From the NCBI GenBank assembly GCA_036400935.1, contig DASWWW010000001.1:118375-182374 (forward strand): 64,000 nucleotides of DNA. The letters run 5' to 3'. Within the stretch, counting starts at the first letter, position 1. Each line of letters starts with the position of its first letter. This document shows, one piece after another, positions 1,678 through 39,589 of this stretch. The DNA is from Minisyncoccota bacterium. Lineage in GTDB: Bacteria; Patescibacteriota; Minisyncoccia; Phycocordibacterales; UBA6065. The position numbers were made by a program, and so were the translations under genes. The notes beneath the pieces were generated by a model. It had not been told where the DNA came from. It searched no databases and saw only the letters and a program-made list of their open reading frames with translations.

Positions 1678-4524
1678 ATGTCAAAGAAGATCGTAGTCGG
1701 CCTTGTAGCAGCATTGTTCATTTTCGGAGCTTCATTCGGTACGGTACGTGCGCAGGAGGCCCAGTCGGGCATCAGCTTCGCTCAGCTCATCGAGCTTCTC
1801 ATCGGCTCGGGCTTGATCGCGCCTGAGAGGGCAGCGAATGCCCGCGCCATGATCTCATCCCAGCCTTTGCCCGTAGGATACGTCGCGTCTCCTGCCTATG
1901 CCACGACGACTATCGGCACCTCGACCGTCGCTACTTCGACCGGCCCTATGGTCGACCTCAAGGTCAGCGGTCTCGACAGCGTAAGCGTAAACAACCGAAC
2001 TACCGTCCGGGTATCTTGGACATCGACCGGCACCCGATCGTGTAATGCAAGCGGATCCTTGCTTTCTATCGCGAACGGGGGACAGTGGGGCTACAACGGC
2101 CTCCTCGGAACTTCGGGCAGCGAGCTGCTCGTCGCGGCGACCTCGGGCTCGCTCCCTTCGACAGTGATCGTAGGCATCCAGTGTTTCACTAATACGGGAA
2201 GCTCCGTTAGCGACAGCGTGCCCGTGACAATTACCGCTTCTGGCAATCTTACGACCGGCACTACCTCGGTCGCGAGCAATCCTTTCGTCGTAACATATCC
2301 GACGAGCGCAAATACTCTTTACATCGGGCCGACTCACACCGTCGTCTTCCGCGGCGGCGACTCCGACGTCCGCAGCTATTCCGTGTATCTCGTCGGCGGC
2401 GCCCTTGGGTCTACCGGTTCACGGTACCTCGGCACCGCATATCCCCAGACGCCTGGAGGAGCTGGAACCTTTGCGATCGTCATTCCTTCGGACATTCAGC
2501 CGGGCAATGGTTATCAGATCCAATTCAGCGGCGCTCGAGCTTCGGGAGGAAACAGCGCCTCATTCGGAATCGTTCGTCCTCCTCAGAATACTATCGCCTC
2601 GAGCACGATCTGGGACATAAATAATCGCGCGGCATCCGGCGTTCAGATCGCTGACGGCACAATCTCAGCAAATATCGCGGGCGCATCTACCATTCAGGTA
2701 AATGCGGGAGACAGCATGACGACCCTCGCAAGGATAAATATCTCTGCGGCAGGATCGGACGTGAGCATCCAGAGAATCAAGATGAATCTCGGATCGGTTT
2801 CTCCTTACAACAAGGTATTCAAGACCATATACTTCACCGATTCGAACGGAACGGTTCTCGCACAGGCGGACATAAACGCGAACACTGTTCCATTAGACGG
2901 CGGAAGCTATACATTGAACCTCGGAGGCTTCAGCAAGAACGTCTCAAGGAATACGACCCATACTTTCAACATAAAGGCGGATATCTATTCTTCTATTCCG
3001 TCGGCCAATCAGGGATACCAGACCATCTCTGTCGGTGCGAGCGGCATTCGAGGAATGGACGCTTCGGGAATAGACCGATACGCTCCCGCATCAGGTATAA
3101 GCCAGACGCTCAACGTCATCGGCGCTCCGATCTCGCCGGTTAGCCTTGTGAACGGCATCACTTATTCGTCTGTTCCTTCATCGGTCGTAGCCGGCTCGAC
3201 ATTCAATGTCACGATCGCGAACTCGGGGACAAAGCAGTGGGGAGCATGGCACGATATCGCGATCTCGGCTAACGACCTCTCCTTCAATACCCAGATGGTC
3301 ACGCTCAGCAGCACTCCTGTCGGATCGTCTAAGACAGTTACCTTCACCGCGCCTACGACTCCGGGTACCTACAAGATCCGCGCGGTAGAGCAGGGCGTCG
3401 AGTGGTTCGGCGGAACTCGATCCTTTACAGTCACCTCGTCGAATACTCAGACTCAGTCTCGACCGATCTCAGGATCTCTCTCGGTCGCATCTACTTGCGT
3501 TGTTCCCGGAGCAAGCTTCAACGTGCAGGGATCGGTTGCGGGCGACGGAGTGAATTCCGTAGTCCTTGAAAAGGACAGCAACCAGGACGGCGTCTTTGGT
3601 ACGGCTGCTACATGGGGATCGACAGGGGGCTCTTTCAATTCTAACGAAGGCGGTTCATACAGCGGGCGCCTCGATTTCAGGCTCGTGGTGAACGGCACTG
3701 TCAGGGATTCAAAGAGTGTCACCGTCTCGACTGCCTGCGGACCGCAGACTCAGCAGTACAGCCAGTCGTGCGCCGGCACCCAGCCTTCAGGCGAGGGAGT
3801 GGTAAAGGGATACTCTTCATACACTTCAGGCTATGGCACCACCAATTGGACATTCGTCTCGGCTAACCCTCAGGCCTGCCAGTGGTCATGTGCGAGCGGA
3901 TACGGCGTGACGGGCAATACCTGCCAGCCGACTACCCAGACTTCGCAGCCTGCTCAGATCACCTATCAGGCATGTTCGGGAACTGAGCCTTCAGGATCAA
4001 ACGTAACAAAGGGCGGCGGCATGTACTCGACCGGCTACGGCACTACAAACTGGACCTACGTCTCTAGCAACCCTCAGGCCTGCCAGTTCACATGTTCGGG
4101 CGGCGCGACATGGAACGGAGCGGCTTGCGTACTGCCAACCCCTACGGTCTCTTTGACCGCGGATACGAGCTGCGCGGTTCCGGGCTCGACCATTACCGTC
4201 ACAAGCTACGTGACCGGTTCGCCAATCACATCTAACTATATAGAGAGGGATACCCCTGCGGAGAATTCCCAGTACGGAGATGGTATATTCGGCGGAAAGG
4301 CTGACTACGGTACTTCGGGAGGCTCTCACAGCTACTCTCAGACTACCGAAAGGGAGGGCTACTACGACTTCAAGGCCGTTGTGAACAACAGCATCACGTC
4401 ATCGGTTCGCGTCTACGCCTCGCAGTCTTGCGGACAGTCATCGGCGGCGCCGGCCATGACTAACCTCGGATCGGCTATTGTAGGCTTTGATTCTCTGGTA
4501 AGGCTCCTTGAATTATTAAAATAA
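1678..4524 (+). CDS. large secreted cell-surface protein (948 aa); Ser/Thr/Gly-rich with several internal Cys-bounded repeats
   Basis: It has a signal peptide and a conserved post-signal module (SFAQLIELLIGSGLIAPERAANARAMI) shared with the 6418 protein. It carries two roughly 90 aa repeats (CVVPGASFNV...LEKDSNQDGVFG...CGP and CAVPGSTITV...CGQ) that are homologous to repeats in 38231..39589, and two roughly 55 aa repeats (CAGTQPSGEG...YGTTNWTFVS.NPQACQW.C). Confidence 0.75.
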   Translation: MSKKIVVGLVAALFIFGASFGTVRAQEAQSGISFAQLIELLIGSGLIAPERAANARAMISSQPLPVGYVASPAYATTTIGTSTVATSTGPMVDLKVSGLDSVSVNNRTTVRVSWTSTGTRSCNASGSLLSIANGGQWGYNGLLGTSGSELLVAATSGSLPSTVIVGIQCFTNTGSSVSDSVPVTITASGNLTTGTTSVASNPFVVTYPTSANTLYIGPTHTVVFRGGDSDVRSYSVYLVGGALGSTGSRYLGTAYPQTPGGAGTFAIVIPSDIQPGNGYQIQFSGARASGGNSASFGIVRPPQNTIASSTIWDINNRAASGVQIADGTISANIAGASTIQVNAGDSMTTLARINISAAGSDVSIQRIKMNLGSVSPYNKVFKTIYFTDSNGTVLAQADINANTVPLDGGSYTLNLGGFSKNVSRNTTHTFNIKADIYSSIPSANQGYQTISVGASGIRGMDASGIDRYAPASGISQTLNVIGAPISPVSLVNGITYSSVPSSVVAGSTFNVTIANSGTKQWGAWHDIAISANDLSFNTQMVTLSSTPVGSSKTVTFTAPTTPGTYKIRAVEQGVEWFGGTRSFTVTSSNTQTQSRPISGSLSVASTCVVPGASFNVQGSVAGDGVNSVVLEKDSNQDGVFGTAATWGSTGGSFNSNEGGSYSGRLDFRLVVNGTVRDSKSVTVSTACGPQTQQYSQSCAGTQPSGEGVVKGYSSYTSGYGTTNWTFVSANPQACQWSCASGYGVTGNTCQPTTQTSQPAQITYQACSGTEPSGSNVTKGGGMYSTGYGTTNWTYVSSNPQACQFTCSGGATWNGAACVLPTPTVSLTADTSCAVPGSTITVTSYVTGSPITSNYIERDTPAENSQYGDGIFGGKADYGTSGGSHSYSQTTEREGYYDFKAVVNNSITSSVRVYASQSCGQSSAAPAMTNLGSAIVGFDSLVRLLELLK

Positions 4525-4539
4525 GGAGCGTATAGAGCA

Positions 4540-4576
4540 GGAAATGCCGCGGGCGCGTAGCGCCCGCGGCATTTCC
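4540..4576 (+). terminator. long perfect hairpin (GGAAATGCCGCGGGCGC / GCGCCCGCGGCATTTCC)
   Basis: A 17 bp inverted repeat lies immediately after the stop at 4524. The T-tract is weak, so it may act as a stabiliser or terminator. Confidence 0.5.
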
Positions 4577-4578
4577 GT

Positions 4579-4606
4579 TTGACTTTGGTTTCCGCTCTGC
4601 TATTAT
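4579..4606 (+). promoter_or_regulatory. sigma70-like promoter TTGACT-16-TATTAT upstream of tuf
   Basis: It is a consensus-like hexamer pair. A roughly 140 nt 5' UTR then leads to an AGGAGG RBS at about 4726. Confidence 0.5.
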
Positions 4607-4744
4607 ACGGTGTACGCATTTTGCGACCTTTTTCATTACCTTTGTAAGTTATTGAAAGAGTTTAAAAGCTTAGAACATTAATTTTTAAGCACCCTGGATT
4701 TGCAACCATCTCGCGCGCAGATCTAGGAGGCTTACCAAAACGTT

Positions 4745-5938
4745 ATGGCAGAATTTGCACGAACAAAGCCTCACGTAAACGTAGGAACCATCGGTCACGT
4801 CGACCACGGAAAGACTACGCTTACTACGGCTATTCTCGCGACTCAGGCTCGCGACGGTCTCGCAGTAGGTAAGGCATACGCCGACATTGCAAAGGGAGGT
4901 ACGGTCCGCGACGCATCTAAGGTCGTTACCATCTCTCTCGCGCACGTAGAGTACGAGTCAAACACTCGACACTACGCTCACATCGACGCCCCTGGTCACG
5001 CCGACTACATTAAGAACATGATTACCGGTGCCGCTCAGATGGACGGCGCTATCCTCGTGGTATCTGCGATTGACGGCCCAATGCCACAGACTCGAGAGCA
5101 TATCCTCCTCGCAAAGCAGGTTGGAGTGCCAAAGATCGTGGTTTTCCTCAACAAGTGCGACGCGGTAGAGGACAAGGATCTCATCGACCTCGTTGAGGGC
5201 GAAGTCCGAGACCTCCTCACCAAGTACGGCTACGACGGCGCAAACACTCCAGTTATCCGCGGATCGGCCCTCAAGGCCCTCGAAGCGGCTAACAACACCG
5301 ACGAGTGGGCAATGAAGGTCAAGGACCTCATGAACACTCTCGACTCTTACATCCCTATGCCAGAGCGAGCTACGGACAAGCCTTTCCTTATGCCTATCGA
5401 GGACATCTTCTCGATCGAAGGACGAGGAACCGTGGTTACGGGACGAATCGAGCGAGGACAGATCAAGGTCGGTGAGGAAGTCGAGATCATCGGTATCAAC
5501 CCGACATCAAAGACAACCATCACTGGTATCGAAATGTTCAACAAGCAGCTCCAGTCCGGTATGGCAGGAGACAACGCAGGACTCCTCCTCCGAGGTACTG
5601 CAAAGGACGCGGTTACTCGCGGACAGGTTCTCGCAAAGGCGGGATCTGTTACTCCTCACACAGAGTTCGAGGCTGAGGTTCTCATCCTCAAGAAGGAAGA
5701 GGGAGGCCGACATACCCCATTCTTCAACGGCTACAAGCCACAGTTCTACGTTCGAACTACGGACGTTACTGGTGAGGTAACCCTCGCCCCTGGAGTAGAG
5801 ATGGTTATGCCTGGAGATACCGTTACCTTCAAGGTAAAGCTCCACGCTCCTATCGCCCTTGAGGACAAGCAGCGCTTCGCTATCCGAGAAGGAGGCAAGA
5901 CTGTCGGAGCAGGCGTCGTAACCAAGATCATCGCGTAA
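4745..5938 (+). CDS. tuf: elongation factor Tu
   Basis: It has the [11 protein letters not shown]-loop, DCPGHADY and NKCD motifs over its full length, and an AGGAGG RBS. Confidence 0.97.
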
Positions 5939-5981
5939 AAGCTTGCTAAATCGGACAAAATAAGTAGACTGAACATTATAT

Positions 5982-6350
5982 ATGGCAGAAGCAACAACAA
6001 AGAAGAAAGTAGTGAAGGCAAAGGCAGCTCCAAAGGCTGATGCGTCTCCACGACTTCGCATCCGTGTCCGAGCGTACGAGAGCAAGATTCTCGACGCTTC
6101 GGTCAAGCAGATCATAGACACGGCTCTCCGCTATGATGTCCAGGTTCTCGGTCCGGTACCGCTCCCTACGGAGATCAAGAAATATACGGTGAACCGCTCG
6201 TCGTTCGTGTATAAAAATGCGCGAGAGCAGTTTGAGATGCGAGTGCACAAGCGCCTCATCGATATCTTGAATCCTAACGCAAAGATCATCGAAGCCCTTA
6301 CGAATATGTCATTGCCATCAGGCGTGAACATCGACGTAAAGATGATTTAA
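5982..6350 (+). CDS. rpsJ: 30S ribosomal protein S10 with a Lys/Ala-rich N-terminal extension
   Basis: The S10 core (RIRVRAYESKILD...) is present. Confidence 0.93.
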   Translation: MAEATTKKKVVKAKAAPKADASPRLRIRVRAYESKILDASVKQIIDTALRYDVQVLGPVPLPTEIKKYTVNRSSFVYKNAREQFEMRVHKRLIDILNPNAKIIEALTNMSLPSGVNIDVKMI

Positions 6351-6354
6351 GAAA

Positions 6355-6390
6355 AAGCAAAAGCCCGCCGCAAGGCGGGCTTTTGCTTTT
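6355..6390 (+). terminator. rho-independent terminator after rpsJ
   Basis: The hairpin GCAAAAGCCCGCC-GCAA-GGCGGGCTTTTGC is followed by a T-run. Confidence 0.7.
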
Positions 6391-6417
6391 GGCGGATACT
6401 CGGCGTATGCTTGCCTT

Positions 6418-8004
6418 ATGACTAAGAAAATCATCGTCTCGGCCCTTTTCGCAGCCGTACTCTTGGGCGGAGTCCAGAGAGCGGAAGCAATGTCTTTCTC
6501 GGAGCTTATTGAGTTTCTTATAAACGCCGGAATTATAGCGCAGAATAAGGCTGCCGAAGCTCGCGCGGCCATAGCCGTAGGCACGGGTCAGCAGTCGAAC
6601 TGCCATATGTTCAATTCGAACTTTGGGGTAGGGTCGGGCGGGCCGGACGTAGCCGCCTTGGGCAAGATCCTTGCCAAGGAGGGGCTGCGTAGCGTTGCTG
6701 GCAATTCCTATGATGAGGAAATGGCCGCTTCAGTCGTGAGCTTTCAGGCGCGCTACGGCATACCATCGACAGGATATGTTGGTCCGCTTACTAGGGCGCA
6801 TCTCAATCAGGTGTCGTGCTCGCCTGCGTCGAGCTCGAAATCTGCGCCAGCGGCCAGTTCGATCCCTGCTTCTGTTCCAGCAAAGCCGGCGGCCACTATC
6901 ATTTCCGCTCCGGTCGTGCTCGCGCCCGCGCCGGGCAGCGTTTGGGACGTAAACGGGAACTATACCGTCAAAATCCAGTTTCCATCGCAAGAATCGGGAA
7001 AAGTCGCGAAGCTTGGCCTAAGCATTTGCCCCGCAACATTTGGCAGCTGTTACATTTTGGAATCGTATGACTCGAGGCTGCCTCTCGGTCAGAATCCCAT
7101 AGCCGAAGTCCCATGGTCCTCGATCAGGGAAATGAATACGAGCATTGCTCCTGGAAAGTACAAGCTTGCCGTCGTCGTGAACGATTCCGATCACTACAAC
7201 AACATATCGGTTGATGGCGGGGAATTCACCGTGACCGGCAGCTTTACACGGCAGGCTTCGCAACAGCCGCAGCCTTCTGGTGACTCGAGCTCGATGGCAC
7301 AGGACTGGTCGGCAACGTCGTTTGTTGGATACTCTCTCGTGAGGGACCTTTCGATTGGTTCTTTGGGGCGCGACGTCGCAATCCTCCAGGATTTTCTTTG
7401 GACAAAATCTTTCTTGCAGATGAGTTCCGGCGTCGTGCACGGCTCTTTTGATCAGGCTACGGCCGATGCGCTTTCCAGGTACCAGGTTTCTGTTGGACTC
7501 TCAGCAAGCGGTTCCGTAGGATCTCTTACGAGGGCGTCTCTCAATACGGCTTTTACATCACAGGCCCCCAATTCTGTTGCCGTTCCCGCTTCAAATCCAG
7601 CAAGCAGTCCGATGCCGCAGGTGTCATGTCCTCAGTCCGTGAGTCTCCCGGGATTTACGCTCACCCTTGAGCCGTGTGAGATTGTTAATGCTTCCTTGAC
7701 CGACGAGCAAGGGGATTTGAAGTTCAAGGTAAGGATCACCGCGAGCGATCCGGGCGCTTCTTTTTCCTTCTATGCATCCTATGCCTCAACTGTCGGTTTT
7801 CCGCCCTATTCGGTTTTGATGGGATCGGGCGCCACTGTGGGCGGCGCAGAATTCGACCTGACTTTCGTTGAAGGTATGCTTTCGGCTAACGGATCTGAGC
7901 CGCGAACATATAGCGGCTATTTGCCAATAACCGTCCTCGATCCCAAGGAGAACAAAGCTTATCTTTATATGAGGCTCAACCTTACGGTAAATCCTGCGAA
8001 CTAG
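6418..8004 (+). CDS. secreted protein with two PG_binding_1 (peptidoglycan-binding) domains, inserted between rpsJ and rplC
   Basis: It has a signal peptide and a conserved N-terminal module (SFSELIEFLINAGIIAQNKAAEARAAI). It also has PG-binding-like segments (GPDVAALGKILAKEGL...GYVGPLTRAHL and GRDVAILQDFLW...VGSLTRASL). Confidence 0.75.
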   Translation: MTKKIIVSALFAAVLLGGVQRAEAMSFSELIEFLINAGIIAQNKAAEARAAIAVGTGQQSNCHMFNSNFGVGSGGPDVAALGKILAKEGLRSVAGNSYDEEMAASVVSFQARYGIPSTGYVGPLTRAHLNQVSCSPASSSKSAPAASSIPASVPAKPAATIISAPVVLAPAPGSVWDVNGNYTVKIQFPSQESGKVAKLGLSICPATFGSCYILESYDSRLPLGQNPIAEVPWSSIREMNTSIAPGKYKLAVVVNDSDHYNNISVDGGEFTVTGSFTRQASQQPQPSGDSSSMAQDWSATSFVGYSLVRDLSIGSLGRDVAILQDFLWTKSFLQMSSGVVHGSFDQATADALSRYQVSVGLSASGSVGSLTRASLNTAFTSQAPNSVAVPASNPASSPMPQVSCPQSVSLPGFTLTLEPCEIVNASLTDEQGDLKFKVRITASDPGASFSFYASYASTVGFPPYSVLMGSGATVGGAEFDLTFVEGMLSANGSEPRTYSGYLPITVLDPKENKAYLYMRLNLTVNPAN

Positions 8005-8010
8005 TTTGAG

Positions 8011-8040
8011 AAAGCCGCCCGCAAGAGCGGCTTTTTCTTT
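8011..8040 (+). terminator. rho-independent terminator
   Basis: The hairpin AAAGCCGCCCGCAAGAGCGGCTTTTT follows the stop. Confidence 0.7.
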
Positions 8041-8066
8041 GACAAATGCTGCTAGAAGAGTAGTCT
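8039..8066 (+). promoter_or_regulatory. promoter-like TTGACA-16-TAGTCT
   Basis: It lies upstream of the ATG at 8079. Confidence 0.35.
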
Positions 8067-8078
8067 ACATACCGGCAC

Positions 8079-8447
8079 ATGAAGCAAAAAATAGCGGTCA
8101 TTGACTACCAATTGGGTCGGCTCGAGCCTCTGCGCCAGCTGCTCGCAGGCGCTGGGTATGAGGTGCTCCCGATCCTTATCGAGGAGGGAACGTACTACGA
8201 ATCGATAAATAAGGTAAAGGTGTTCGGTCCGGATCTTATCCTGACGGTGCATGTCCTCGGTATCGACGGCGTGAACGGCAGCCACGTATCGCGTGCGCTC
8301 GACTTGCCCAAAACCAGGCTCGTGGGCACTGACGAAAGCAAGGTGGCACAGCCGTACTGCGCGGCACGGTTCGATATCAAGGGCGTGCACGCTTCGGACA
8401 GTTCCAAGCGCAAGTTCATAGCCTTCATCAAAGCGGCCCTCTCCTAA
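8079..8447 (+). CDS. small CheY-like pseudo-receiver domain protein that lacks the phospho-acceptor Asp
   Basis: It has a receiver-like beta-alpha pattern (KIAVIDYQ...GPDLILTVHVLGIDG...LVGTDES...K). The position aligned with CheY D57 is Val, and the acidic pair is DY instead of DD. A terminator hairpin at 8433..8464 overlaps the stop. Confidence 0.5.
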   Translation: MKQKIAVIDYQLGRLEPLRQLLAGAGYEVLPILIEEGTYYESINKVKVFGPDLILTVHVLGIDGVNGSHVSRALDLPKTRLVGTDESKVAQPYCAARFDIKGVHASDSSKRKFIAFIKAALS

Positions 8448-8473
8448 AGGGGCCGCTTTTTTCTTGCCGAATC

Positions 8474-8502
8474 TTGCATAATCCGCCCTTTTGAGGTAAT
8501 AT
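8474..8502 (+). promoter_or_regulatory. sigma70-like promoter TTGCAT-17-TAATAT followed by a roughly 90 nt leader upstream of rplC
   Basis: Hexamers and spacing are consensus-like. The leader may be an r-protein autoregulatory target. Confidence 0.5.
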
Positions 8503-8592
8503 CTTTGCCACTGAAGCAAGGGGCTTCTGGTCAGTTTTAATAGGTCAGTTAAGAGAGCCTACGGAGTCTCATACTCCGCGCTCGTCCAAACA

Positions 8593-9219
8593 ATGAAGAA
8601 ATTCATCCTCGGCACGAAAAAGGCTATGACTCAGGTCTTCGACGCTGACGGTATCGCATATCCTGCGACCGTCCTGTCGGCAGGTCCTGTCGTCGTAACC
8701 CAGGTTAAGACGGTAGAGAATGACGGTTATGCTGCTCTTCAGGTAGGTTTCGGCCTCCAGAAGGAACAGCGCCTTACAAAGGCGGTAAAGGGCCACGTAA
8801 AGCAGCTCGGATTCTTCCGACACATCGCGGAGTTCTGCGTTGATGCGGCAGAGGTTGCAAAGGCAAAGGTAGGCGACAAGATCGACCTCAGCACTTTCGC
8901 TGCGGGCGACCTCGTTACTGTCCGATCGCAGGCAAAAGGAAAGGGCTTCCAGGGTGCCGTCAAGCGACATCACTTCGGTGGAGGACGCCGATCTCACGGT
9001 CAGAAGCACTCTGAGCGAGAAGTTGGTTCTATCAACGGCGGAGGCCGCGTAGGATCTGGACGCGTCGCAAAGGGCAAGCGAATGCCAGGACGCATGGGAA
9101 ATGACATGGTCACTGTAAAGAATCTCAAGGTTCTCCAGGTTCGCCCTGAGTCGAACGAGATCGTTATCCACGGATCCCTTCCTGGTCGAAAGGGCGTACT
9201 CGTATCTATCGTTGCGTAA
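8593..9219 (+). CDS. rplC: 50S ribosomal protein L3
   Basis: L3 homology runs the full length. Confidence 0.93.
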   Translation: MKKFILGTKKAMTQVFDADGIAYPATVLSAGPVVVTQVKTVENDGYAALQVGFGLQKEQRLTKAVKGHVKQLGFFRHIAEFCVDAAEVAKAKVGDKIDLSTFAAGDLVTVRSQAKGKGFQGAVKRHHFGGGRRSHGQKHSEREVGSINGGGRVGSGRVAKGKRMPGRMGNDMVTVKNLKVLQVRPESNEIVIHGSLPGRKGVLVSIVA

Positions 9220-9237
9220 TATTTTTATATCAAACAT

Positions 9238-9948
9238 ATGAAAACTGAAACCAAGACAAAGAAGGCGGTTAAGGCAACGAAGACAAATCTCGAGGCGACC
9301 ATCTACGACAAGGCAGGCAAGTCAGTAGGCACAGCGACCCTCGCTGAGTCAGCTTTCGGCCTCTCATGGAACGCCGACCTCGTTCACCAGGTCATGCTCT
9401 CGATGAACTCGACAGCTCGACAGCCTATCGCTCACACCAAGACTCGCGGAGAAGTTCGCGGAGGAGGCAAGAAGCCATGGCGACAGAAGGGAACAGGCCG
9501 CGCTCGACACGGATCTACCCGATCTCCATTGTGGGTCGGAGGAGGCGTGGCGCACGGACCTCGAAACGACAAGAACTACGATCGAAAGATCAACAAGGGC
9601 ATGAAGGCCAAGGCTTTCCTCACGCTTCTCTCAAAGAAGTGGCGAGACGGCGAGATCCTCTTCGTGGACTCTCTCTCGTTCAAGGCTCCAAAGACAGCTG
9701 ACGCTATGTCTGCTCTCTCAACCCTTTCAAAGGTAAAGGGCTTCGAGAAGCTTTCTACGAAGCGAAAGAACTCTGCTTTCATCGCATTGGCGAAGAAGGA
9801 CGTCGCTACCGAGAAGAGCTTCCGAAACATCGGATCCGTCACTATCGACGAGACTCGAAACCTCAACCTTCTCGACCTCTTGAAGTACACCTTCATCGTT
9901 ATCGAGAATCCGGTCGAATCAGTCAAAGTAATCGAAGCTAAACTCTAA
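9238..9948 (+). CDS. rplD: 50S ribosomal protein L4
   Basis: L4 motifs (GGGKKPWRQKGTGRAR) are present. Confidence 0.93.
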   Translation: MKTETKTKKAVKATKTNLEATIYDKAGKSVGTATLAESAFGLSWNADLVHQVMLSMNSTARQPIAHTKTRGEVRGGGKKPWRQKGTGRARHGSTRSPLWVGGGVAHGPRNDKNYDRKINKGMKAKAFLTLLSKKWRDGEILFVDSLSFKAPKTADAMSALSTLSKVKGFEKLSTKRKNSAFIALAKKDVATEKSFRNIGSVTIDETRNLNLLDLLKYTFIVIENPVESVKVIEAKL

Positions 9949-31938: not shown

Positions 31939-31942
31939 TCTT

Positions 31943-32293
31943 ATGGCAAAAGACATACTCGTACCTGCGGTTTTCATAGCATTGCTCGCGCTCCTTCTTG
32001 AGCCGTTCGGTTTCATGCCATCGATGGCCGTCATGACCGTACTTATCCTTTGCGTCGCGGCATTTGCCCTGTTCGCGCTCTTTATCTGGAGGGAGAAAGG
32101 CGATGATGAAAGGGAGCGGGTGCATATCAATCGCGCTGACAGGATCGGTTTCATTTTCGGCGCCGTGGTCCTGCTTGCGGCTATCGTGGCTCAGTCGCTT
32201 GCGCATATGCTTTCGCCTTGGCTCGTGGCCGCTCTCGTCGCCATGGTCGCGGCAAAGGCGGTAGCGCTTATTTATCAGAAAAATACTAACTAA
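31943..32293 (+). CDS. small membrane protein co-transcribed with the XRE regulator (DUF2178-like pairing)
   Basis: It has 3-4 TM segments and sits 4 nt after the XRE stop. Confidence 0.55.
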   Translation: MAKDILVPAVFIALLALLLEPFGFMPSMAVMTVLILCVAAFALFALFIWREKGDDERERVHINRADRIGFIFGAVVLLAAIVAQSLAHMLSPWLVAALVAMVAAKAVALIYQKNTN

Positions 32294-32294
32294 T

Positions 32295-33002
32295 ATGATA
32301 GACGTATCTTTGCCCGTAGCCTTCCTTGCTGGCCTGGTGTCGTTCGCGTCACCGTGCGTCTTACCTATCATTCCCGGGTTTCTAGCCTATGTCGCCGGCA
32401 CGACTCTGGGAGAGAATGCGAAGAGGCGCGATATCTTCCTTGCCAGCCTGTTTTTCGTGCTCGGATTCTCTATCGTGTTCGCGCTGCTCGGAGTGCTTCT
32501 CAATACGGTGCTTGCGGGAGTCGCGTACGGGGCGCAAGCGTGGCTGTCCCGCATAGGGGGAGTGATCATTATCGTCTTTGGCCTCTATCTGACGGGGCTT
32601 CTGAGCATCCCTGCATTGTCCAGAGCCCATACGATGCACGTGAGCGTAAAGAAGCACTCGCGCTACCTTACTTCGTTCCTGTTTGGTTTCGCTTTCGCCG
32701 CGGGATGGACGCCGTGCGTTGGCGCGATACTTGGGGCGATCATTGCCTTGGCTGCATCTAATCCGGGTTCGGCCTTCGCGCTCCTTCTTTCGTATTCGAT
32801 CGGGCTCGGCGTGCCGTTCCTTCTTGTCGGCATTTTCGCTAGCCAGGCGACGGGATTTATCGCGCGGCACTCGAGGGCGTTCCAGACTCTCAGTAAAGTG
32901 TTCGGGGCGATCCTGGTCGTCTTGGGGATATTGGTATTCACCCAGGAACTCTCTCGCATCGCGAGCTTCGGCTTCGTGAACGAGCTTCTTTTAAAATTGT
33001 AA
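32295..33002 (+). CDS. ccdA: cytochrome c-type biogenesis / thiol:disulfide interchange membrane protein CcdA (DsbD TM domain)
   Basis: It has the two conserved Cys motifs (SPCVLP and WTPCVG) and 6 TM segments. Confidence 0.85.
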   Translation: MIDVSLPVAFLAGLVSFASPCVLPIIPGFLAYVAGTTLGENAKRRDIFLASLFFVLGFSIVFALLGVLLNTVLAGVAYGAQAWLSRIGGVIIIVFGLYLTGLLSIPALSRAHTMHVSVKKHSRYLTSFLFGFAFAAGWTPCVGAILGAIIALAASNPGSAFALLLSYSIGLGVPFLLVGIFASQATGFIARHSRAFQTLSKVFGAILVVLGILVFTQELSRIASFGFVNELLLKL

Positions 33003-33015
33003 TCATCCAAATAAT

Positions 33016-34215
33016 ATGATGGGAACGAAACAAATCGTCGGATTGCTGATCGCTGTCGTGGCAATCGTCGGAGCTATCCTGTATCTGGGCAATGGCAAGG
33101 CGAGGCCTTCGGCCTTTGCTGGGCCCGCGCAGGAGATCATTTTGCCGATAGCGGGCGATAGCATGGCGTACGCCTCCACAACCCTTGGCGGCGATTCGAT
33201 GGCGACAGATCGGGCGGACGGATCGCGCGTCGCGGCGAAATCCGCCCGTTACGCCCGGGCAAAGGAGCTTGTTGCGCCTGCCGGCTTTATCAATACGGGC
33301 GGAAAGCCAATAAAGATTGCCGACTACGTGGGAAAGAAGGTGATATTGCTCGATATCATGACGTACAGCTGCATCAACTGCATCCGCACGTTCCCATATG
33401 TTACTGACTGGTACGCGAAGTACGAGGACAAGGGGCTCGTCGTGATCGGCATCCATACTCCCGAATTCGAGTTTGAAAAGAGTATAGATAATGTAACGGC
33501 TGCGATGCAGAAATACGGCGTCAAATTTCCCGTCGTGCTCGACAATGATTACGGCACATGGACCGCATACAACAACATGTATTGGCCGCGCAAGTATCTT
33601 ATCGATATTGACGGGTTTATCAGGTATGACCATATCGGGGAGGGCGGCTATGCCGAGACGGAGAAGGTGATTCGGGATCTGTTGAGGGAGCGAGCGGAAG
33701 TTCTGGACCAGAAGGTCGACCTGGATGTATCGGTAACGAAAGGGCAGTCGGAAGGAGGGTCTATCGGTCAGAGCCCCGAGACGTATATCGGCGGGGCCCG
33801 CAATGCGCTCCTCGCGAACGGCGAGCCTGGAACGTCGGGCGTCCAAGACCTTGTCGTGCCGCGGGAGCTTTCGACGAGCAGGCTGTATCTTGGCGGCTCG
33901 TGGAATATCCAGCCTGAACACGCGGAAAGCGTCGGCGCGGGGTCGAGCATCGTCTATCCGTTCATCGCGAAGAAGGTTTTCCTCGTGATGTCTTCGGATA
34001 TCGCCATGGACGTCGAGGTGCTTGTTGACGGTAAGCCGGTGGCAGCAAGCGACAGGGGCGAGGACGTCAGGGCTTTTGGAAACAGGTCTGTAGTTACGGT
34101 TTCCGAATCCCGCCTCTATTCGCTGTATGCCGGCGCCGCGTCAGGCCGCCATACAATAACACTTATTGCGCCGGGCAAGGGCTTGAGAGCATTTGCCTTT
34201 ACGTTCGGCGGATAG
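33016..34215 (+). CDS. membrane-anchored thioredoxin-like (TlpA/ResA/Etrx-like) protein with an extra C-terminal domain
   Basis: It has an N-terminal TM, a CxxC motif (SCINC) in a redoxin fold, and a roughly 170 aa C-terminal beta-rich domain. Confidence 0.75.
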   Translation: MMGTKQIVGLLIAVVAIVGAILYLGNGKARPSAFAGPAQEIILPIAGDSMAYASTTLGGDSMATDRADGSRVAAKSARYARAKELVAPAGFINTGGKPIKIADYVGKKVILLDIMTYSCINCIRTFPYVTDWYAKYEDKGLVVIGIHTPEFEFEKSIDNVTAAMQKYGVKFPVVLDNDYGTWTAYNNMYWPRKYLIDIDGFIRYDHIGEGGYAETEKVIRDLLRERAEVLDQKVDLDVSVTKGQSEGGSIGQSPETYIGGARNALLANGEPGTSGVQDLVVPRELSTSRLYLGGSWNIQPEHAESVGAGSSIVYPFIAKKVFLVMSSDIAMDVEVLVDGKPVAASDRGEDVRAFGNRSVVTVSESRLYSLYAGAASGRHTITLIAPGKGLRAFAFTFGG

Positions 34216-34238
34216 GGATTTCTAATCACTATATTTCT

Positions 34239-34793
34239 ATGGACAATAAGAGCGCGGCGGTATTCGGCGGAGGCTGCTTCTGGTGCACGGAGGCGGTATT
34301 CAACATGCTCAAGGGCGTGTCGAAAGTCGTGCCTGGCTATTCGGGCGGAGCAAAGCCCAATCCGATATACGAGGAGGTCTGCAATGGTAACACCGGCCAT
34401 GTCGAGGTGGTGCGCGTTGAGTACGATCCTGCCTTGATCGACTATTCCGACCTGCTGACTGTATTTTTCGGCAGCCATGATCCGACTACGAAGGATCGGC
34501 AGGGAAATGACGTCGGTACGCAGTACCGATCTGTCATTTTCTATACGACGCCTGAGCAGAAGGTCGCGGCAGAGAAATTCATCGCCGATATAAACGCTTC
34601 GAGCGCGAATGGCAAGCCGATTGTTACCGTTGTCGAGCCTTTGGCGAATTTCTATGAGGCCGAGAACTACCATCACGACTATTTTGCCCGCAATCCTCAG
34701 AATCCGTATTGCGAAGTGATCATAAATCCGAAATTGGCGAAGGTTGAGAAGCAGTTTTACGCCCTTGTGAAGGACGACGCCAAGAAGAAATAG
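34239..34793 (+). CDS. msrA: peptide methionine sulfoxide reductase A
   Basis: The GCFWC motif is present. Confidence 0.93.
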   Translation: MDNKSAAVFGGGCFWCTEAVFNMLKGVSKVVPGYSGGAKPNPIYEEVCNGNTGHVEVVRVEYDPALIDYSDLLTVFFGSHDPTTKDRQGNDVGTQYRSVIFYTTPEQKVAAEKFIADINASSANGKPIVTVVEPLANFYEAENYHHDYFARNPQNPYCEVIINPKLAKVEKQFYALVKDDAKKK

Positions 34794-34806
34794 CTATCAG
34801 CTAATT

Positions 34807-35211
34807 TTGAAAATCAATATGAAAGATATCCCAAAGACGGAAGGTGAGTGGAAGAAGAATCTGACGCCCGAGCAGTATCAGGTCCTGCGCCAAAAGGGGA
34901 CAGAAGCGCCGTTTTCAGGAAGGCTCCTGCATGCCGACGCCGACGGCACGTATAAATGCACTGCTTGCGGCAATCCGCTGTTCTCGTCGGATGCGAAATT
35001 TGATTCGGGCACCGGTTGGCCGTCTTTTGATCAGGCTTTGCCCGGTGCTGTGAAGGAAATCACTGATGACTCGCATGGCATGCGACGCGTCGAGACCGTA
35101 TGCGCTCGCTGCGACTCGCACCTCGGTCACGTATTCGATGACGGCCCGACGGCGACAGGCAAGAGGTACTGCATGAATTCGGTTTGCCTCGATCTGGAGG
35201 AGAAGAAATAG
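34807..35211 (+). CDS. msrB: peptide methionine sulfoxide reductase B
   Basis: It has the CxxC..CxxC zinc site and the RxCxN-like catalytic region (VCARCDSHLGHVF). Confidence 0.92.
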   Translation: MKINMKDIPKTEGEWKKNLTPEQYQVLRQKGTEAPFSGRLLHADADGTYKCTACGNPLFSSDAKFDSGTGWPSFDQALPGAVKEITDDSHGMRRVETVCARCDSHLGHVFDDGPTATGKRYCMNSVCLDLEEKK

Positions 35212-35256
35212 AAAAGCCGCCCGCAAGGGCGGCTTTTGTCGGTAATCGCTTTGCGA

Positions 35257-36435
35257 TTAGTGGTGATGATGGCCGGCATACTCGAGGGCGTGGCGCTCCT
35301 TGTCGAGCGTGTCCGGGCTTGCCGCTTTGGCGCCCGTATTTTTAATGAGCATCAGTACGGCAACGACCGTCGTTACGGGAACGGCGAGGATGAGGCCGAT
35401 TGATCCGACGAGCGATCGCACGATCTCGGCCGAGAAGATCTCGCGGTTCACGATGACTGCCGCTGACTCGTTTGAAAGATAGAAGAGCAAGAGGAGGGGG
35501 AGAGAAGCTCCGACATAGGCGATGGCGAGGGTATTCACAAGCGCGCCGATATGCTCGCGGCCGATGCGGATAGCGCGCAGATAGATGGCCTTGCGAGTCA
35601 TGTGCGGGGCAACGCGATGCAGCTCCTCGACCGATATGGACTGGCCGATCGCCGCGTCGTACATCACTCCGAGGAGCCCAATGAGTATTCCGCCTAGGAG
35701 GAGGCCGGCGAGATCGATCGTGCCGCGCGAATTGAAATGCAGGTAGGTCGATTCGTCACTCTCAAAGCCGGTGAGGCCAGCCATATGTATGGAGAAGTGG
35801 GCAAAGAGGCCAATGAACGAGACGGTGGCGATCATGCCGATGACCGCTGCAGTCGTCGTCTTGTTGAAGCCGTGGGTAACGTACGAGCCGAGAATGATGA
35901 TGAGCGAGGAGACGCCGATCGAGACCCAGACGGGCGAGTAGCCATTCGCCATCGCCGGCAACAGCACGAAACCAATAAGGAGGAAGCTGCCGAAGAGGGA
36001 GAGGAGGCCGCGCACGCCCTGCTTGCCTCCGAATATGATCGTGAGCGCGATGAAGAGCACGGTGAGCCAGATCAGTGCAGGGGTTCGGTACGGCTCGGCT
36101 ACCGAATAGAGCTCGCTGCCGCCATCCCACCCTACGATGCGGCGCAGGTAGAACTTGTCGCCGGCCTCGAGCTCGGCGTAGTCGTTGTCCATCTCGATGG
36201 TCGAGCCCTTTATCTCACCTTCGAGCACTTCGGCCCGCAGGACTTGCACCATGTGAGAGGTGTCCGTTCCGGGAATGATCTCGATTTTCTGGTCTACGAT
36301 CTCGATGACGCGAGCTTTTACGATTTCCTGCTTGTCCTCGACGATCTCCTGGGCGTGCGCGACGGGGAAGGAGGCCGCCGTGACGGCGAGGGCGAGAGAG
36401 GCGAGCAGTCCTAGGGCGACGAGTGGTTTTTCCAT
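35257..36435 (-). CDS. YibE/F-like integral membrane protein (signal peptide, extracellular N-domain and multi-TM core)
   Basis: The architecture and length match the YibE/F family. It ends with a natural HHHH tail. Confidence 0.55.
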   Translation of the reverse strand: MEKPLVALGLLASLALAVTAASFPVAHAQEIVEDKQEIVKARVIEIVDQKIEIIPGTDTSHMVQVLRAEVLEGEIKGSTIEMDNDYAELEAGDKFYLRRIVGWDGGSELYSVAEPYRTPALIWLTVLFIALTIIFGGKQGVRGLLSLFGSFLLIGFVLLPAMANGYSPVWVSIGVSSLIIILGSYVTHGFNKTTTAAVIGMIATVSFIGLFAHFSIHMAGLTGFESDESTYLHFNSRGTIDLAGLLLGGILIGLLGVMYDAAIGQSISVEELHRVAPHMTRKAIYLRAIRIGREHIGALVNTLAIAYVGASLPLLLLFYLSNESAAVIVNREIFSAEIVRSLVGSIGLILAVPVTTVVAVLMLIKNTGAKAASPDTLDKERHALEYAGHHHH

Positions 36436-36504
36436 AGGGTAATATTATCTACTTGCAAGTAATTTGCAATTACTATATAGTGGCATACATATCATAACAA
36501 AAAC

Positions 36505-37233
36505 ATGACGCTTACACTTATAGCAATCGGAGCATTCGTGGCGACCCTTCTTGGCGGATTACTGGCTATCAAGTGGAGCGACAAGCTGCATCTCGTCCTC
36601 GGCTTCAGCGCGGGCGCCCTCATAGGCGTCGCCTTCTTCGACCTCTTGCCGGAGGCGCTCGAGATCGGCGGCCAGTTCTTCGACTCCTCTGCCATATTGC
36701 TCGCGACCGCTATCGGATTCGTCCTGTATCTCTTGCTCGACCGGACATTCTTTACCCACTGCCATGAGGAGGGGCACAGCCATCACAGCAAGAGCCGCGG
36801 CACGTTCGGGGCGGGGAGCCTTTCGTTCCATAGCTTTCTCGACGGCGTGGCCGTAGGTATCGCTTTTCACGTATCGCCGGCGATGGGCGCAGTCGTAGCG
36901 GCAGCAGTCCTTGCTCATGATTTCTCTGACGGCATCAATACCGTTTCCATGATCCTGCGACACGGCGGATCAAAGAAGGCGGCCATGAAATGGCTCGCGA
37001 CCGACGCGATCGCTCCTGTCCTCGGTATCGCTTCGACATTCCTTTTTACTATTCCCGAGTCGTTCGTCGGCATCATCCTCGCCGTATTCTGCGGATTCTT
37101 CCTTTATATAGGAGCGAGCGACCTCTTGCCTGAGAGCCATCACAATCATCCGACGCACTGGACGACGATAGCGACGATTGTCGGTATGGCGGTCATATAC
37201 GTAGCGATTCATTTTGCTCACGCCCACGGGTAG
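36505..37233 (+). CDS. zupT: ZIP family metal (Zn/Fe) permease
   Basis: It has the HSFLDGVA and LAHDFSDGI signature motifs and 8 TM segments. Confidence 0.85.
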   Translation: MTLTLIAIGAFVATLLGGLLAIKWSDKLHLVLGFSAGALIGVAFFDLLPEALEIGGQFFDSSAILLATAIGFVLYLLLDRTFFTHCHEEGHSHHSKSRGTFGAGSLSFHSFLDGVAVGIAFHVSPAMGAVVAAAVLAHDFSDGINTVSMILRHGGSKKAAMKWLATDAIAPVLGIASTFLFTIPESFVGIILAVFCGFFLYIGASDLLPESHHNHPTHWTTIATIVGMAVIYVAIHFAHAHG

Positions 37234-37256
37234 TCGCTGCCAAAAAATAGTTTGCA

Positions 37257-37288
37257 TAAAAAAGCCCGCTCCTATGAGTGGGCTTTGC
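37257..37288. terminator. bidirectional terminator (AAAAAGCCCGCTCCTATGAGTGGGCTTT)
   Basis: The hairpin lies between convergent genes. Confidence 0.65.
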
Positions 37289-38123
37289 GCAGATTGAGCT
37301 TTACCATGCCGGTATAGCTCCACAGCGATAGGATCCAGTGCGTCACGTCGGTGAGCTTTTCCTGCCAGGTGATGGCCTGGGCCTCGAACGCCTGCTGGTG
37401 ATGATGGTTGTTGTGCCATCCCTCGCCGATGGTGAGGATGTTGAGCCATCCGCAGTTCCTACTCTCGTCGCCGGTCTGAAACCTCTGGGTCCCGAACATG
37501 TGGGCGAGCGAGTTGATGCAGAACGTACCGTGATACAGGAGGAATGTCGAGGTGAAGAAGGCCATGAGGCAGGGGAGGCCGCCGAAATGCATGCATGCCA
37601 TGCCGATAAGGACTGGCACGAACAGGTATCCGACGGGCCGCTCCAGAAACATGAGCTCCTTGCAACTCGAGAAGTCCCTTACCTCGTCGTAATCCGCCGT
37701 GCGAAACTTGCTGCACAGTATCCAGCCGACATGCGACCAGTACAGGCCGTGCAGCTTGCGCGAGTGGACGTCTTCGGGCCCATCTGAGTGCCTGTGGTGG
37801 TGCCTGTGCCAGGCTGCCCACCAGAGCGGGCCCTTTTGAACTGTCGACGTGACGCAGAGCGCCATGACGAACTGAACAGAGCGTCGCCACGCCTCACTGC
37901 CCTGAATCCTGAAGGACCGGTGTGAGAAGAAGCGATGCTGGAATCCCGTTACGAAGAACATTCGTACGTAATAGAGGATGGCTGCCGTCAGAAAGACGCG
38001 CCAATCCTGAACTACCCAATACAAGCCTGCTATGCCCAGCAGGTTTATGAGAAAGAAGGGGATGGAAGCTGCAAATTCGAGCTTTTCTTCCGGCCCTCTC
38101 TCGCCTGAGTGCGAGCTGATCAT
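37272..38123 (-). CDS. membrane acyl-lipid/acyl-CoA delta-9 fatty acid desaturase
   Basis: It has three His boxes (HRFFSH, HRHHHRH, HNNHHH) in 4-TM topology. Confidence 0.85.
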   Translation of the reverse strand: MISSHSGERGPEEKLEFAASIPFFLINLLGIAGLYWVVQDWRVFLTAAILYYVRMFFVTGFQHRFFSHRSFRIQGSEAWRRSVQFVMALCVTSTVQKGPLWWAAWHRHHHRHSDGPEDVHSRKLHGLYWSHVGWILCSKFRTADYDEVRDFSSCKELMFLERPVGYLFVPVLIGMACMHFGGLPCLMAFFTSTFLLYHGTFCINSLAHMFGTQRFQTGDESRNCGWLNILTIGEGWHNNHHHQQAFEAQAITWQEKLTDVTHWILSLWSYTGMVKLNLRKAHS

Positions 38124-38230
38124 GGTGATAAACCTTTCCGAGTTTGAGGTTGCGATTCAGGCCTCATCGTATCACGTCTTGTAATAAGCGGTGCCGAACC
38201 TACGTCTAGGGGGTATTAAATATATATTAA

Positions 38231-39589
38231 ATGAAAAAGACCCTGCCTTTGATCGGTTTGTGCTCGCTCACGTTGGTTGCCGGAATGACTTTCTTTACGA
38301 GCGGCGACCCTGCGTCCGCAGCTATCGAGACCTGCGATGCTGGTTCCGACATGAGCTATCACCAGGCCAAGGAGGCTATGGCGAGCGGGGAGCTTTCCCT
38401 GACGTATAATCCCGATACGTCGGCAAACAGGGTAACGGTAAACATTCAGAACAACACTCCGTGCTCAGTGCCACTCAGCCTCAGCACCTATAGGATGTTC
38501 GGACCATACGATCCGGCCACCCAGTCCCAGCAGCAGTTCTATGCCGGCACGGGCGTTTTCAACGTAGCGGCAAACTCGGGAGCGACATTGGAGGCTGACA
38601 TTCCAACTTGCGCCGCTCAGTACGACGTATGGTATGGATCAGCCCCTCAGGTCATCCCTGACAACGAGGTCTATGGCAGCATCATGTTCGGCGATCATGT
38701 CCGACAGGATCAGTACTGCCAGCTTCCCCCAGCGACTCCGGTGACCGCGACCCTTTCGGCGAATGCGTCTTGCATCGTCCCTGGCGCGACCGTCCAATTC
38801 ACGGCTAATTTCGCGGGAGGCTCGATCGGCTCAAAGACCCTCGAGAAGGATACCAATGCCGATGGGGCATACGGCGAGGTTGCGTCATGGGGACCTGGGC
38901 CTGGAACTCATGTGTATACCGAGGTTACTGATGCGAACTATTCGGGAATCTATTCTGCTCGACTGATGGCGGACGGCACCGAGATCGTGCGGACGAATGT
39001 CACGGTTGACGCGTCGTGCGCGCCGGTCGTGCCGCCTCCCGTAGTCCCTCCGCCGGTCGCAGCTCCTATCACGGCGAACCTCGCTCCTGAATCCGTCTGC
39101 ATTGTCCCTGGCGCTGTCGTATCGTTCACCGCGAATGTGAATGGGGACGGCATCTCGTCGAAGACTTTGGAGAAGGATACCAATGCTGATGGGTCATTCG
39201 GCGAAGTCGTAGCCTGGGGAGCGGGTGCGGGCACTCATACATATACCGAGGGTCTCGACGCAAGCTACACGGGCGTCTACACCGCACGCCTCATGGTCAA
39301 CGGCAATGAGATGTCTCGCCAGAATGTGACAGTAGATACGGCCTGCGGACCGGCTGTAGTCGTTCCGCCTCCAGTAGTACCTCCGCCGCCAGTCGTCCCA
39401 CCTCCTGTCGTCCCTCCGCCAGAGCCGCCGATCGTCCCTACCAATACGGGAGACGGCCCGATCACTCCTCGCGGAGGCGGCAGCGGACGCAGCGGAGGAC
39501 GAAGCACTCCAGTTCAGCCGGTGGTCATAACTACAACTGATTTCGTTCCGGGCCTTCCTGATACCGGACTTCCTCCACGAAGGCGCTAA
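38231..39589 (+). CDS. secreted surface protein with two homologous Cys-bounded repeats, Pro-rich (PPPVVPPP) linkers and a C-terminal LPDTG motif that lacks a hydrophobic anchor
   Basis: It has a signal peptide. Two roughly 95 aa repeats (C.VPGA.V.FTAN..G..I.SKTLEKDTNADG.[FY]GEV..WG.G.GTH.YTE..DA.Y.G.Y.ARLM..G.E..R.NVTVD..C.P) match repeats in 1678..4524. The protein ends ...FVPGLPDTGLPPRRR. Confidence 0.75.
   Translation: MKKTLPLIGLCSLTLVAGMTFFTSGDPASAAIETCDAGSDMSYHQAKEAMASGELSLTYNPDTSANRVTVNIQNNTPCSVPLSLSTYRMFGPYDPATQSQQQFYAGTGVFNVAANSGATLEADIPTCAAQYDVWYGSAPQVIPDNEVYGSIMFGDHVRQDQYCQLPPATPVTATLSANASCIVPGATVQFTANFAGGSIGSKTLEKDTNADGAYGEVASWGPGPGTHVYTEVTDANYSGIYSARLMADGTEIVRTNVTVDASCAPVVPPPVVPPPVAAPITANLAPESVCIVPGAVVSFTANVNGDGISSKTLEKDTNADGSFGEVVAWGAGAGTHTYTEGLDASYTGVYTARLMVNGNEMSRQNVTVDTACGPAVVVPPPVVPPPPVVPPPVVPPPEPPIVPTNTGDGPITPRGGGSGRSGGRSTPVQPVVITTTDFVPGLPDTGLPPRRR

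Follow-up and report, generated by a model that had tools for sequence, protein, structure and literature searches.

A cysteine-bounded, predicted immunoglobulin-like repeat in two secreted proteins of a Minisyncoccota bacterium

A 64,000-nucleotide stretch of the genome of a Minisyncoccota bacterium (GenBank assembly GCA_036400935.1, contig DASWWW010000001.1, positions 118,375 to 182,374 of the forward strand; hereafter the window) encodes two large secreted proteins, the products of open reading frames (ORFs) A and B, each of which carries two copies of a domain bounded by a pair of cysteines. The locus raises the question of what this domain is, an overlooked version of a known module or a sequence family of its own, and what it would do on the surface of the cell. 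Both ORFs are intact, and their products of 948 and 452 amino acids (aa), respectively, each start with a Sec-type signal peptide. The copies, denoted A1, A2, B1 and B2, are located as given in Table 1.

The copies are homologous and the repeats are real. In BLASTP comparisons, B2 (aa 279-374 of B) and A1 (aa 596-689 of A) share 45.8% identity over 96 aa with an E value of 1.7e-21, B1 (aa 170-265) and the same segment of A share 37.5% identity (E 8e-16), and both B1 and B2 match A2 (aa 817-927) at 30-32% identity (E 2e-10 to 4e-10), while the two copies within protein B are 61% identical to each other. A search of the six-frame translation of the window with a hidden Markov model (HMM) of the four copies found no fifth copy, the next best match having an E value above 1. 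The 14 cysteines of protein A and the eight of protein B are clustered by domain, and every copy begins with a short beta-strand that is followed by the first bounding cysteine, with the second one 81-87 aa further on. An earlier note on this DNA had proposed two plus two homologous repeats of about 90-95 aa in two large secreted proteins, and the repeats are borne out by the BLASTP E values of 1.7e-21 to 4e-10. The motif skeleton which it listed has turned out to be the consensus of the whole family described below, whereas the size has to be adjusted, as the complete domain including the strand ahead of the first cysteine is about 96-102 aa long.

The domain is not confined to the window. 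When 1.84 billion (1.84e9) cluster-representative proteins were scanned exhaustively with HMMER, 51 of them reached E<=1e-3 and 31 of these E<=1e-10, with a gap between the 31 best, all at 1.8e-11 or better, and the remainder at 3.4e-10 and weaker, which are generic repeat proteins with Big_9, Cadherin_4/5, He_PIG and PKD repeats. With the four-copy profile, a word-indexed search across 5.8e9 proteins gave a single match, the fragment P0001, which is an orthologue of the C-terminus of ORF A, and a further word-indexed search of the same proteins gave eight. The top 29 proteins of the scan (P0001-P0030 without P0019) contain one to three full-length copies each, amounting to 45 copies when the window is counted, and the family consists of about 30 members, every one of them a secreted multi-domain protein. 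In the 43 complete copies the residues C11, D37, D41 and C93 (numbered as in the B2 segment) are invariant, and P14, G26, S31, K36, G42, G45 and N78 are conserved in at least 90%. The family consensus reads C-x2-P-G ... G-x2-[IV]-x-S-x2-L-E-K-D-[TS]-N-x-D-G-x-[FY]-G ... W-G ... Y-x-G-x-Y-x2-[RK]-L-x-V-N-G ... V-x-V-x3-C. Two subtypes can be distinguished, the first with 29 copies, among them A1, B1 and B2, and the second with 11 copies, A2 among them, in which a six-residue insertion is often present ahead of the DG.

Such conservation bears on the simplest explanation for the similarity, a compositional or chance resemblance among secreted proteins rich in Thr, Ser, Gly and Val. The proteins are indeed rich in these residues, and the weak HMM matches show that the F-G hairpin part of the profile is generic. 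The explanation is nevertheless refuted by the pairwise E values, which reach 1.7e-21 under composition-based statistics, and by the invariant residues, which stay in register across 45 copies in about 30 proteins; together with the confident fold prediction, this leaves it with practically negligible probability.

The family appears to be restricted to Patescibacteria, or the candidate phyla radiation (CPR), as judged from the labels of the metagenome-assembled genomes (MAGs) in which homologous loci are found and from gene content, which in the window includes a compact ribosomal-protein region, sortases and PG_binding_1 proteins. Loci were located by a single back-translated exact peptide, LEKDTNAD, taken from eight close copies, and the counts are therefore lower bounds: at least three loci in GTDB species representatives, in two uncultured Candidatus Saccharibacteria MAGs and one Candidatus Paceibacterota MAG, and at least two metagenome contigs, one of them named Hain-H41-01um, which we take to be a 0.1-µm groundwater fraction. 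The product of ORF B is identical in five independent Logan assemblies (six samples). The suggestion that the domain is a lineage-specific surface module agrees with these data, since only about 30 representative clusters among 1.84e9 contain it, all of them secreted multi-domain proteins, and the labelled genomes are Patescibacteria MAGs. A description of the domain was not found in the literature search.

Predicted fold and nearest named families

The AlphaFold2 model of copy B2, calculated from a five-sequence alignment, is an all-beta seven-strand sandwich (pLDDT 88.3, pTM 0.74) with strands at residues 2-7, (11-12), 17-25, 32-37, 45-49, 55-62, 69-77 and 80-89, after which a short turn is predicted at 91-93. 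The structural neighbours of the model are immunoglobulin-like (Ig-like), MG, CARDB and PKD domains, with MG and not PKD at the top of the list; those found by Foldseek include a porphyran-binding carbohydrate-binding module (CBM; 8wae) and the lectin domain of FedF, and no solved structure is close to the model. The predicted fold is a generic Ig-like (E-set) beta-sandwich. The model displays the two-sheet Greek-key arrangement of Ig-like and E-set domains along with structural similarity to their members, and it also has the seven strands and the length of about 80-90 residues of a PKD-type sandwich.

At the sequence level, no match above threshold was obtained in Pfam-A (models to 2025) or NCBIfam for proteins A and B, for the single copies or, over the domain, for ten other members. 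The precomputed Pfam annotation of the ORF B orthologues is empty, and searches of PDB sequences with both profiles returned only chance antibody matches with E values at or above 0.5. The earlier note had read the repeat as an Ig-like or beta-sandwich module that could not be mapped to a named family. The first part accords with the seven-strand AlphaFold2 sandwich and its Ig-like, MG, CARDB and PKD neighbours, and the second is upheld by the searches of Pfam-A, NCBIfam and PDB sequences, which stayed below threshold for the window proteins and the ten other members; a confident match to a BIG or cadherin-like domain was likewise not obtained.

Below the thresholds, the nearest curated family is PKD, to which the domain appears to be remotely related in sequence. 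The PF00801 model scores 13.5 bits against ORF B (E 0.074) and reaches an E value of 0.04 with the best single copy, which does not attain the gathering threshold of 23.5 bits, and the Pfam PKD model scores 17.2 bits against the family consensus (E 0.0051), aligning residues 3-87 to positions 2-75 of 80, again below the 23.5-bit cut-off. A local hhalign comparison of the 43-copy profile with the Pfam-PKD-positive repeats of P0036 gave a probability of 90.9% and an E value of 1.2e-6 over 76 columns. In that alignment DTNxDGxxG stands opposite the DCxxDGxFE of the stretch Y-K-F-D-C-x-x-D-G-x-F-E, so that the D and the DG are retained, while in comparison with WDFGDG the family has a longer loop that lacks the Trp. 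The repeats of P0031 gave 83%, and the Big_9 repeats of P0019 gave 72% over 46 columns that comprise the F-G hairpin only, with no full-length match.

The resemblance to PKD domains (PF00801/PF18911, E-set clan) extends to several features. Both are Ig-like seven-strand sandwiches of about 80-90 aa from extracellular multi-domain proteins, both have a conserved D-G-bearing C-C' loop and the F-strand motif Y-x-G-x-Y-x-[VL]-x-L-x-V, and both occur in tandem in surface proteins, where PKD domains are used as spacers and the Cys-bounded domain probably is too. In contrast to PKD domains, the Cys-bounded family has the longer [LI]EKD[TS]NxDGx[FY]G in place of WDFGDG, carries an invariant cysteine pair at the ends of the domain and seems confined to Patescibacteria. 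The Big_9, Cadherin_4 and Cadherin_5 families (PF17963, PF17803 and PF17892) share the F-G hairpin pattern G-x-Y/F...V-N-D/G...V-x-V and likewise occur in tandem in surface proteins, where the repeats use acidic Ca2+-binding loops; however, they align only partially, over some 46 columns, and have no cysteine pair.

The domain could accordingly be taken for a plain divergent canonical PKD domain that annotation has missed and in which the cysteines are an incidental feature of the lineage. PKD is the top Pfam match of the consensus, full-length and at an E value of 0.005, protein B and one copy give 0.074 and 0.04, and hhalign gives 91% to PKD-positive repeats. Yet all scores remain within 13.5-17.2 bits against a gathering threshold of 23.5, a longer loop, [LI]EKD[TS]NxDG, stands where PKD domains have WDFGDG, and Pfam recognises none of the approximately 30 members over the domain region. 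Furthermore, the family profile retrieves no solved PKD domain by sequence, MG rather than PKD domains are the top structural neighbours, and the cysteine pair is invariant and thus not incidental. We regard a mere missed annotation as improbable. What is new is one small, unannotated sequence family within PKD/Ig-like domains, a superfamily that is very large and well known, and neither a new fold nor a new kind of system; the finding is not surprising to a specialist and is mildly interesting for its invariant terminal cysteine pair.

The cysteine pair and a possible stalk function

On balance, the repeat is probably a new extracellular Ig-like sequence family, remotely related to PKD and apparently restricted to Patescibacteria, which serves as a disulfide-stapled spacer or stalk module. 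First, in the predicted topology, Cys11 is located in the A' bridge after the first strand and Cys93 three to four residues past strand G. Because A' and G run parallel in PKD and I-set domains, the sandwich would carry these two invariant residues at one and the same end, where they probably form an intradomain disulfide. Indirect support for the bond comes from the invariance of the pair, from the clustering of the cysteines of proteins A and B by domain and from P0023, whose mature part has two cysteines in all, both of which belong to the domain. Counted beyond residue 32, the cysteines are even in number in 23 of the 31 full-length family proteins (binomial p=0.005), a bias in favour of disulfides whose p-value is optimistic because the proteins in the statistic are related; some of the odd counts stem from cysteines in transmembrane tails or from truncated N-termini. 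In I-set Ig and PKD domains, A'/G or A-B-loop/G contacts act as the mechanical clamp (PMC2862302). A Cys11-Cys93 bond would covalently staple this A'/G interface and render the domain essentially inextensible under N-to-C tension, and the stapled domain would act as a rigid spacer in cell-surface proteins that resists both protease and force. An enrichment of MdbA-like thiol-disulfide oxidoreductases, VKOR and sortases is also reported for CPR genomes (PMC6744442), and a DsbB-family gene (PF02600, E 1.3e-11) is present at 8404..8955 of locus L003, from a Candidatus Paceibacterota MAG, about 400 nt downstream of a 1055-aa P0008-like member; a second occurrence, at 6395..6952 of L009, is the same locus, which leaves one independent instance only.

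Next, the D37-x-N39-x-D41-G42 loop, present in subtype 1 and part of subtype 2, may be a candidate Ca2+ site on account of its resemblance to DxDxDG loops, and Ca2+ bound there would further stiffen the module. A different covalent cross-link, a K36-N78 isopeptide bond, was also considered and is disfavoured, although short of rigorous exclusion: the predicted topology puts the two residues at opposite ends of strands C and F, which run antiparallel, and there is no similarity to Cna_B, which gave no match at E<=10.

Finally, in ORF B and its orthologues, the B-type proteins, the copies sit between a conserved head and the tail with a polyproline linker behind each copy, and their number varies from none in P0053 and one in P0013, P0014 and P0017 to two in B, P0004 and P0052 and three in P0002, while P0054, a distant homologue, has PKD_4 domains where the Cys-bounded copies stand in the B-type proteins. 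The variable copy number, the polyproline linkers and the PKD_4 replacement together are behaviour typical of stalk or spacer repeats. In such an arrangement, the zero to three copies alternating with polyproline linkers would raise the N-terminal head away from the sortase-processed LPXTG C-terminus, and in the A-type proteins (ORF A and its orthologues P0003, P0012, P0018, P0020-22 and L002) and other architectures the domain would be one bead among several beta-sandwiches in proteins associated with the wall, some of which also have PG_binding_1.

A sortase gene is located directly 3' of the B-type gene in four independent loci (the window/L007, L001, L004 and L005/6), and the motifs in the ORF B orthologues are LPDTG, FPKTG, FPDTG, FPSTG and YPNAG, so that ORF B, with its LPXTG-type motif and adjacent sortase genes, is likely a sortase substrate. 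A hydrophobic segment and basic tail do not follow the motif in ORF B, and its stop codon is the same in five assemblies; the classical tail with a transmembrane (TM) segment and basic residues is kept in the orthologues P0013, P0004 and P0014. A sortase signal without a TM segment would be unusual. The TM-less ends observed among P0002, P0053, P0017, P0052 and the ORF at 5476..6972 of L001 are LPDTGLPPRNRGSVHR, LPDTGYAPRRR, FPSTGFAPRWSK, YPNAGFAPRK and YPNAGFAPWK, and a TM-less sorting-signal peptide ending in VPGLPDTGLPPRRR is a candidate for the sortase encoded at 39601..40200.

The conservation of the DG loop lends itself also to another explanation, that the domain itself is ligand-binding, either adhesive or carbohydrate-binding, with the EKDTNxDG loop together with W50 and Y67 forming a surface to which a component of the host cell or the matrix would bind, as in PKD and CBM-like Ig domains of some hydrolases and adhesins. 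The very strong conservation of the loop residues, whatever the architecture of the protein, keeps this the main rival, and the porphyran-binding 8wae and the FedF lectin domain are among the Foldseek neighbours. In P0005, P0006, P0015 and P0016 the domain is moreover placed distal to an N-terminal PG_binding_1 anchor, and the CPR bacteria are epibionts in need of adhesins (general knowledge; PMC6744442). Nevertheless, close B orthologues have anything from zero to three copies, with P0053 lacking the domain yet retaining both the head and the LPXTG, generic PKD domains replace it in P0054, and the likeness to characterised binding domains never rises above the level of the generic fold. Ligand binding as the primary function is therefore possible but unlikely.

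Several observations nonetheless weigh against a disulfide-stapled stalk. No DsbA, MdbA, DsbB or VKOR was detected in the 64-kb window by a DsbB phmmer search and a [WF]CxxC regular expression, and the only thiol-redox genes of the window form a reductive, extracytoplasmic CcdA/thioredoxin-like/MsrAB cluster at 32295..35211. The N39 of the DxNxDG loop is replaced by P, together with a 6-aa insertion, in A2-like copies of subtype 2, so that a Ca2+ site, if any, is not universal. The missing hydrophobic segment in B and several orthologues makes covalent wall anchoring of B uncertain. The strong conservation of the surface-loop residues EKDTNxDG and WG, finally, exceeds what a passive spacer needs and could indicate a binding site.

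Companion modules and other features of the window

Elsewhere in the family, the companions of the domain are PG_binding_1, Kre9_KNH-like Ig and Gly_rich_2, which are modules of the wall or the cell surface, as well as DUF642 and further unannotated beta-sandwich modules, and the proteins that contain them are all secreted and wall-associated. In ORF A, two different four-cysteine repeats are placed between A1 and A2, outside the Cys-bounded domain, with the spacing C-x35-C-x3-C-x10-C and the motif YxxGYGTTxWT...ACQ[WF][ST]C. These have no Pfam match and represent a second unannotated Cys-rich module, which recurs in the A-type proteins P0003, P0012, P0018, P0021 and P0022. The head domain of ORF B, in turn, has no close structural relative.

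The A-type proteins also have distinctive termini. Right behind the signal peptide there is a helix-like motif, ISFAQLIELLIGSGLIAPERAANARAMI in ORF A (1771..1854), with a similar MSFSELIEFLINAGIIAQNKAAEARAAI in the ORF at 6418..8004, and the extreme C-terminus is a tail of the form NLGxA[IV]VGFDxxxxLLxxL[KR] (4462..4521), present in A, P0001, P0003, P0012, P0018 and P0020-22. The N-terminal motif and the tail, neither of which has a Pfam match, may be a pair of sorting or anchoring signals. A third type of C-terminal ending, [DST]KPx[FYM]Px[FY]xE[IEQ], is seen in P0009, P0010, P0011 and P0024-P0026 (for example SKPLFPGYIEI, SKPRYPGFQEQ and TKPLMPNYKEI) and may be another sorting signal.

Upstream of ORF A, the secreted protein encoded at 371..1438 contains a module of the PKD/FG-GAP-like type, 'DPDGD...DLDGDG', which resembles the repeats at the N-terminus of the L003 protein, and the partial ORF 25..426 at the start of the window resembles the N-terminal domain of the same protein; the family HMM has no match in either of them. 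The CxxC protein at 33016..34215 was considered as an oxidising Dsb protein and rejected, as it is redoxin-type and part of the reductive CcdA-MsrAB cluster; this cluster and the fatty-acid desaturase gene together hint at an oxygen-exposed lifestyle. The window further contains a transfer-messenger RNA (tmRNA) at 45857..46248 and a tRNA-Ile with the anticodon TAT (UAU) at 49245..49319, identified by ARAGORN; a tRNA-Ile with a UAU anticodon is uncommon in bacteria. Compared with the domain, the TM-less signals, the conserved N- and C-terminal ends of the A-type proteins, the two further unannotated Cys-rich modules and the tRNA-Ile(UAU) may be the more original findings.

Table 1 Features of the window, with positions in nucleotides from its first letter and residues in protein numbering.
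Feature	Position	Strand	Residues and description
ORF A	1678..4524	+	Secreted multi-domain surface protein: signal peptide, several beta-sandwich modules, A1, A2, conserved C-terminal tail
Copy A1	3466..3753	+	aa 597-692; subtype 1; Cys607 (3496-3498), Cys687 (3736-3738)
Four-cysteine repeats	3745..4137	+	Two different repeats of ~60 aa: 3745..3930 (aa 690-751) and 3955..4137 (aa 760-820)
Copy A2	4141..4446	+	aa 822-923; subtype 2 with 6-aa insertion PAENSQ within the DG loop; Cys832 (4171-4173), Cys918 (4429-4431)
CcdA/DsbD_TM	32295..33002		
Membrane-anchored redoxin	33016..34215		CxxC, thioredoxin-like, C-terminal Thioredoxin_10 domain
MsrA	34239..34793		
MsrB	34807..35211		
Fatty-acid desaturase	37272..38123		
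ORF B	38231..39589	+	Signal peptide, 4-Cys head domain, B1, Pro-rich linker, B2, Pro-rich region, LPDTG
Head domain of ORF B	38330..38719	+	aa 34-163; N-terminal; four conserved Cys; beta-sandwich and one helix
Copy B1	38741..39034	+	aa 171-268; subtype 1; Cys181 (38771-38773), Cys263 (39017-39019)
Proline-rich linker	39023..39067	+	PVVPPPVVPPPVAAP, joining B1 to B2
Copy B2	39068..39364	+	aa 280-378; subtype 1; used for modelling; Cys290 (39098-39100), Cys372 (39344-39346)
Long proline-rich region	39350..39439	+	Behind B2, presumably wall-spanning
LPDTG sortase motif	39554..39568	+	aa 442-446; followed by LPPRRR and stop, no transmembrane segment
Sortase gene 1	39601..40200	+	Class-F-like; N-terminal TM helix; LITC active-site motif; PF04203 E 1.3e-21
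Sortase gene 2	40202..40993	+	Class-F-like, fused to peptidoglycan-binding domain; PF04203 E 4e-18, PF01471 E 3.9e-12

Relation to known stalks and implications

In CnaB domains and Spy0128, a covalent intradomain cross-link from the first to the last strand gives mechanical and proteolytic resistance. The CnaB stalks of Gram-positive MSCRAMM adhesins and pilins are built much as the B-type proteins, with a signal peptide, a head, a variable number of Ig-like repeats, a Pro-rich wall-spanning region, an LPXTG motif and an adjacent sortase. In contrast, no sequence or Pfam relation exists between the two, and the putative cross-link is a disulfide here, whereas it is a Lys-Asn isopeptide in CnaB. 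The FimA and SpaA pilins of Actinobacteria are likewise secreted Ig-like domains of monoderms, in their case disulfide-stabilised via a dedicated MdbA/VKOR oxidoreductase, and paired cysteines are also present in the Ig-like folds of the CPR pilins PamA/B (bioRxiv 10.64898/2026.03.03.709456). Unlike the Cys-bounded domains, which are tandem beads in one polypeptide, the FimA/SpaA and Pam pilins are polymerising subunits linked by sortase or by donor strands.

A bolder model, which we consider speculative and rather doubtful, is that Patescibacteria evolved a stalk chemistry of their own for sortase display, in which a lineage-specific PKD-like module with a covalent disulfide in place of the A'/G mechanical clamp is combined with a TM-less signal, [LFY]P[DSN][TA]G[LFY][AP]P followed by R/K and a stop, that is read by the adjacent class-F-like sortase. 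In function, the module would then correspond to the CnaB repeats that Firmicutes and Actinobacteria cross-link by isopeptide bonds, and it would mark the epibiont attachment apparatus in a subset of CPR lineages.

Most proteins of CPR bacteria are unannotated, and their surface proteins likely mediate attachment to host cells. The module is compact and easily recognised, and the 45-copy HMM is specific, which makes it a tool to annotate the surface proteins of CPR bacteria and to search for loci of sortase-dependent display. Should the terminal disulfide exist, the domain would represent a simple natural design of force-resistant protein beads that is relevant to protein engineering, and it would be a further sign that oxidative folding forms an integral part of the cell surface in CPR bacteria.

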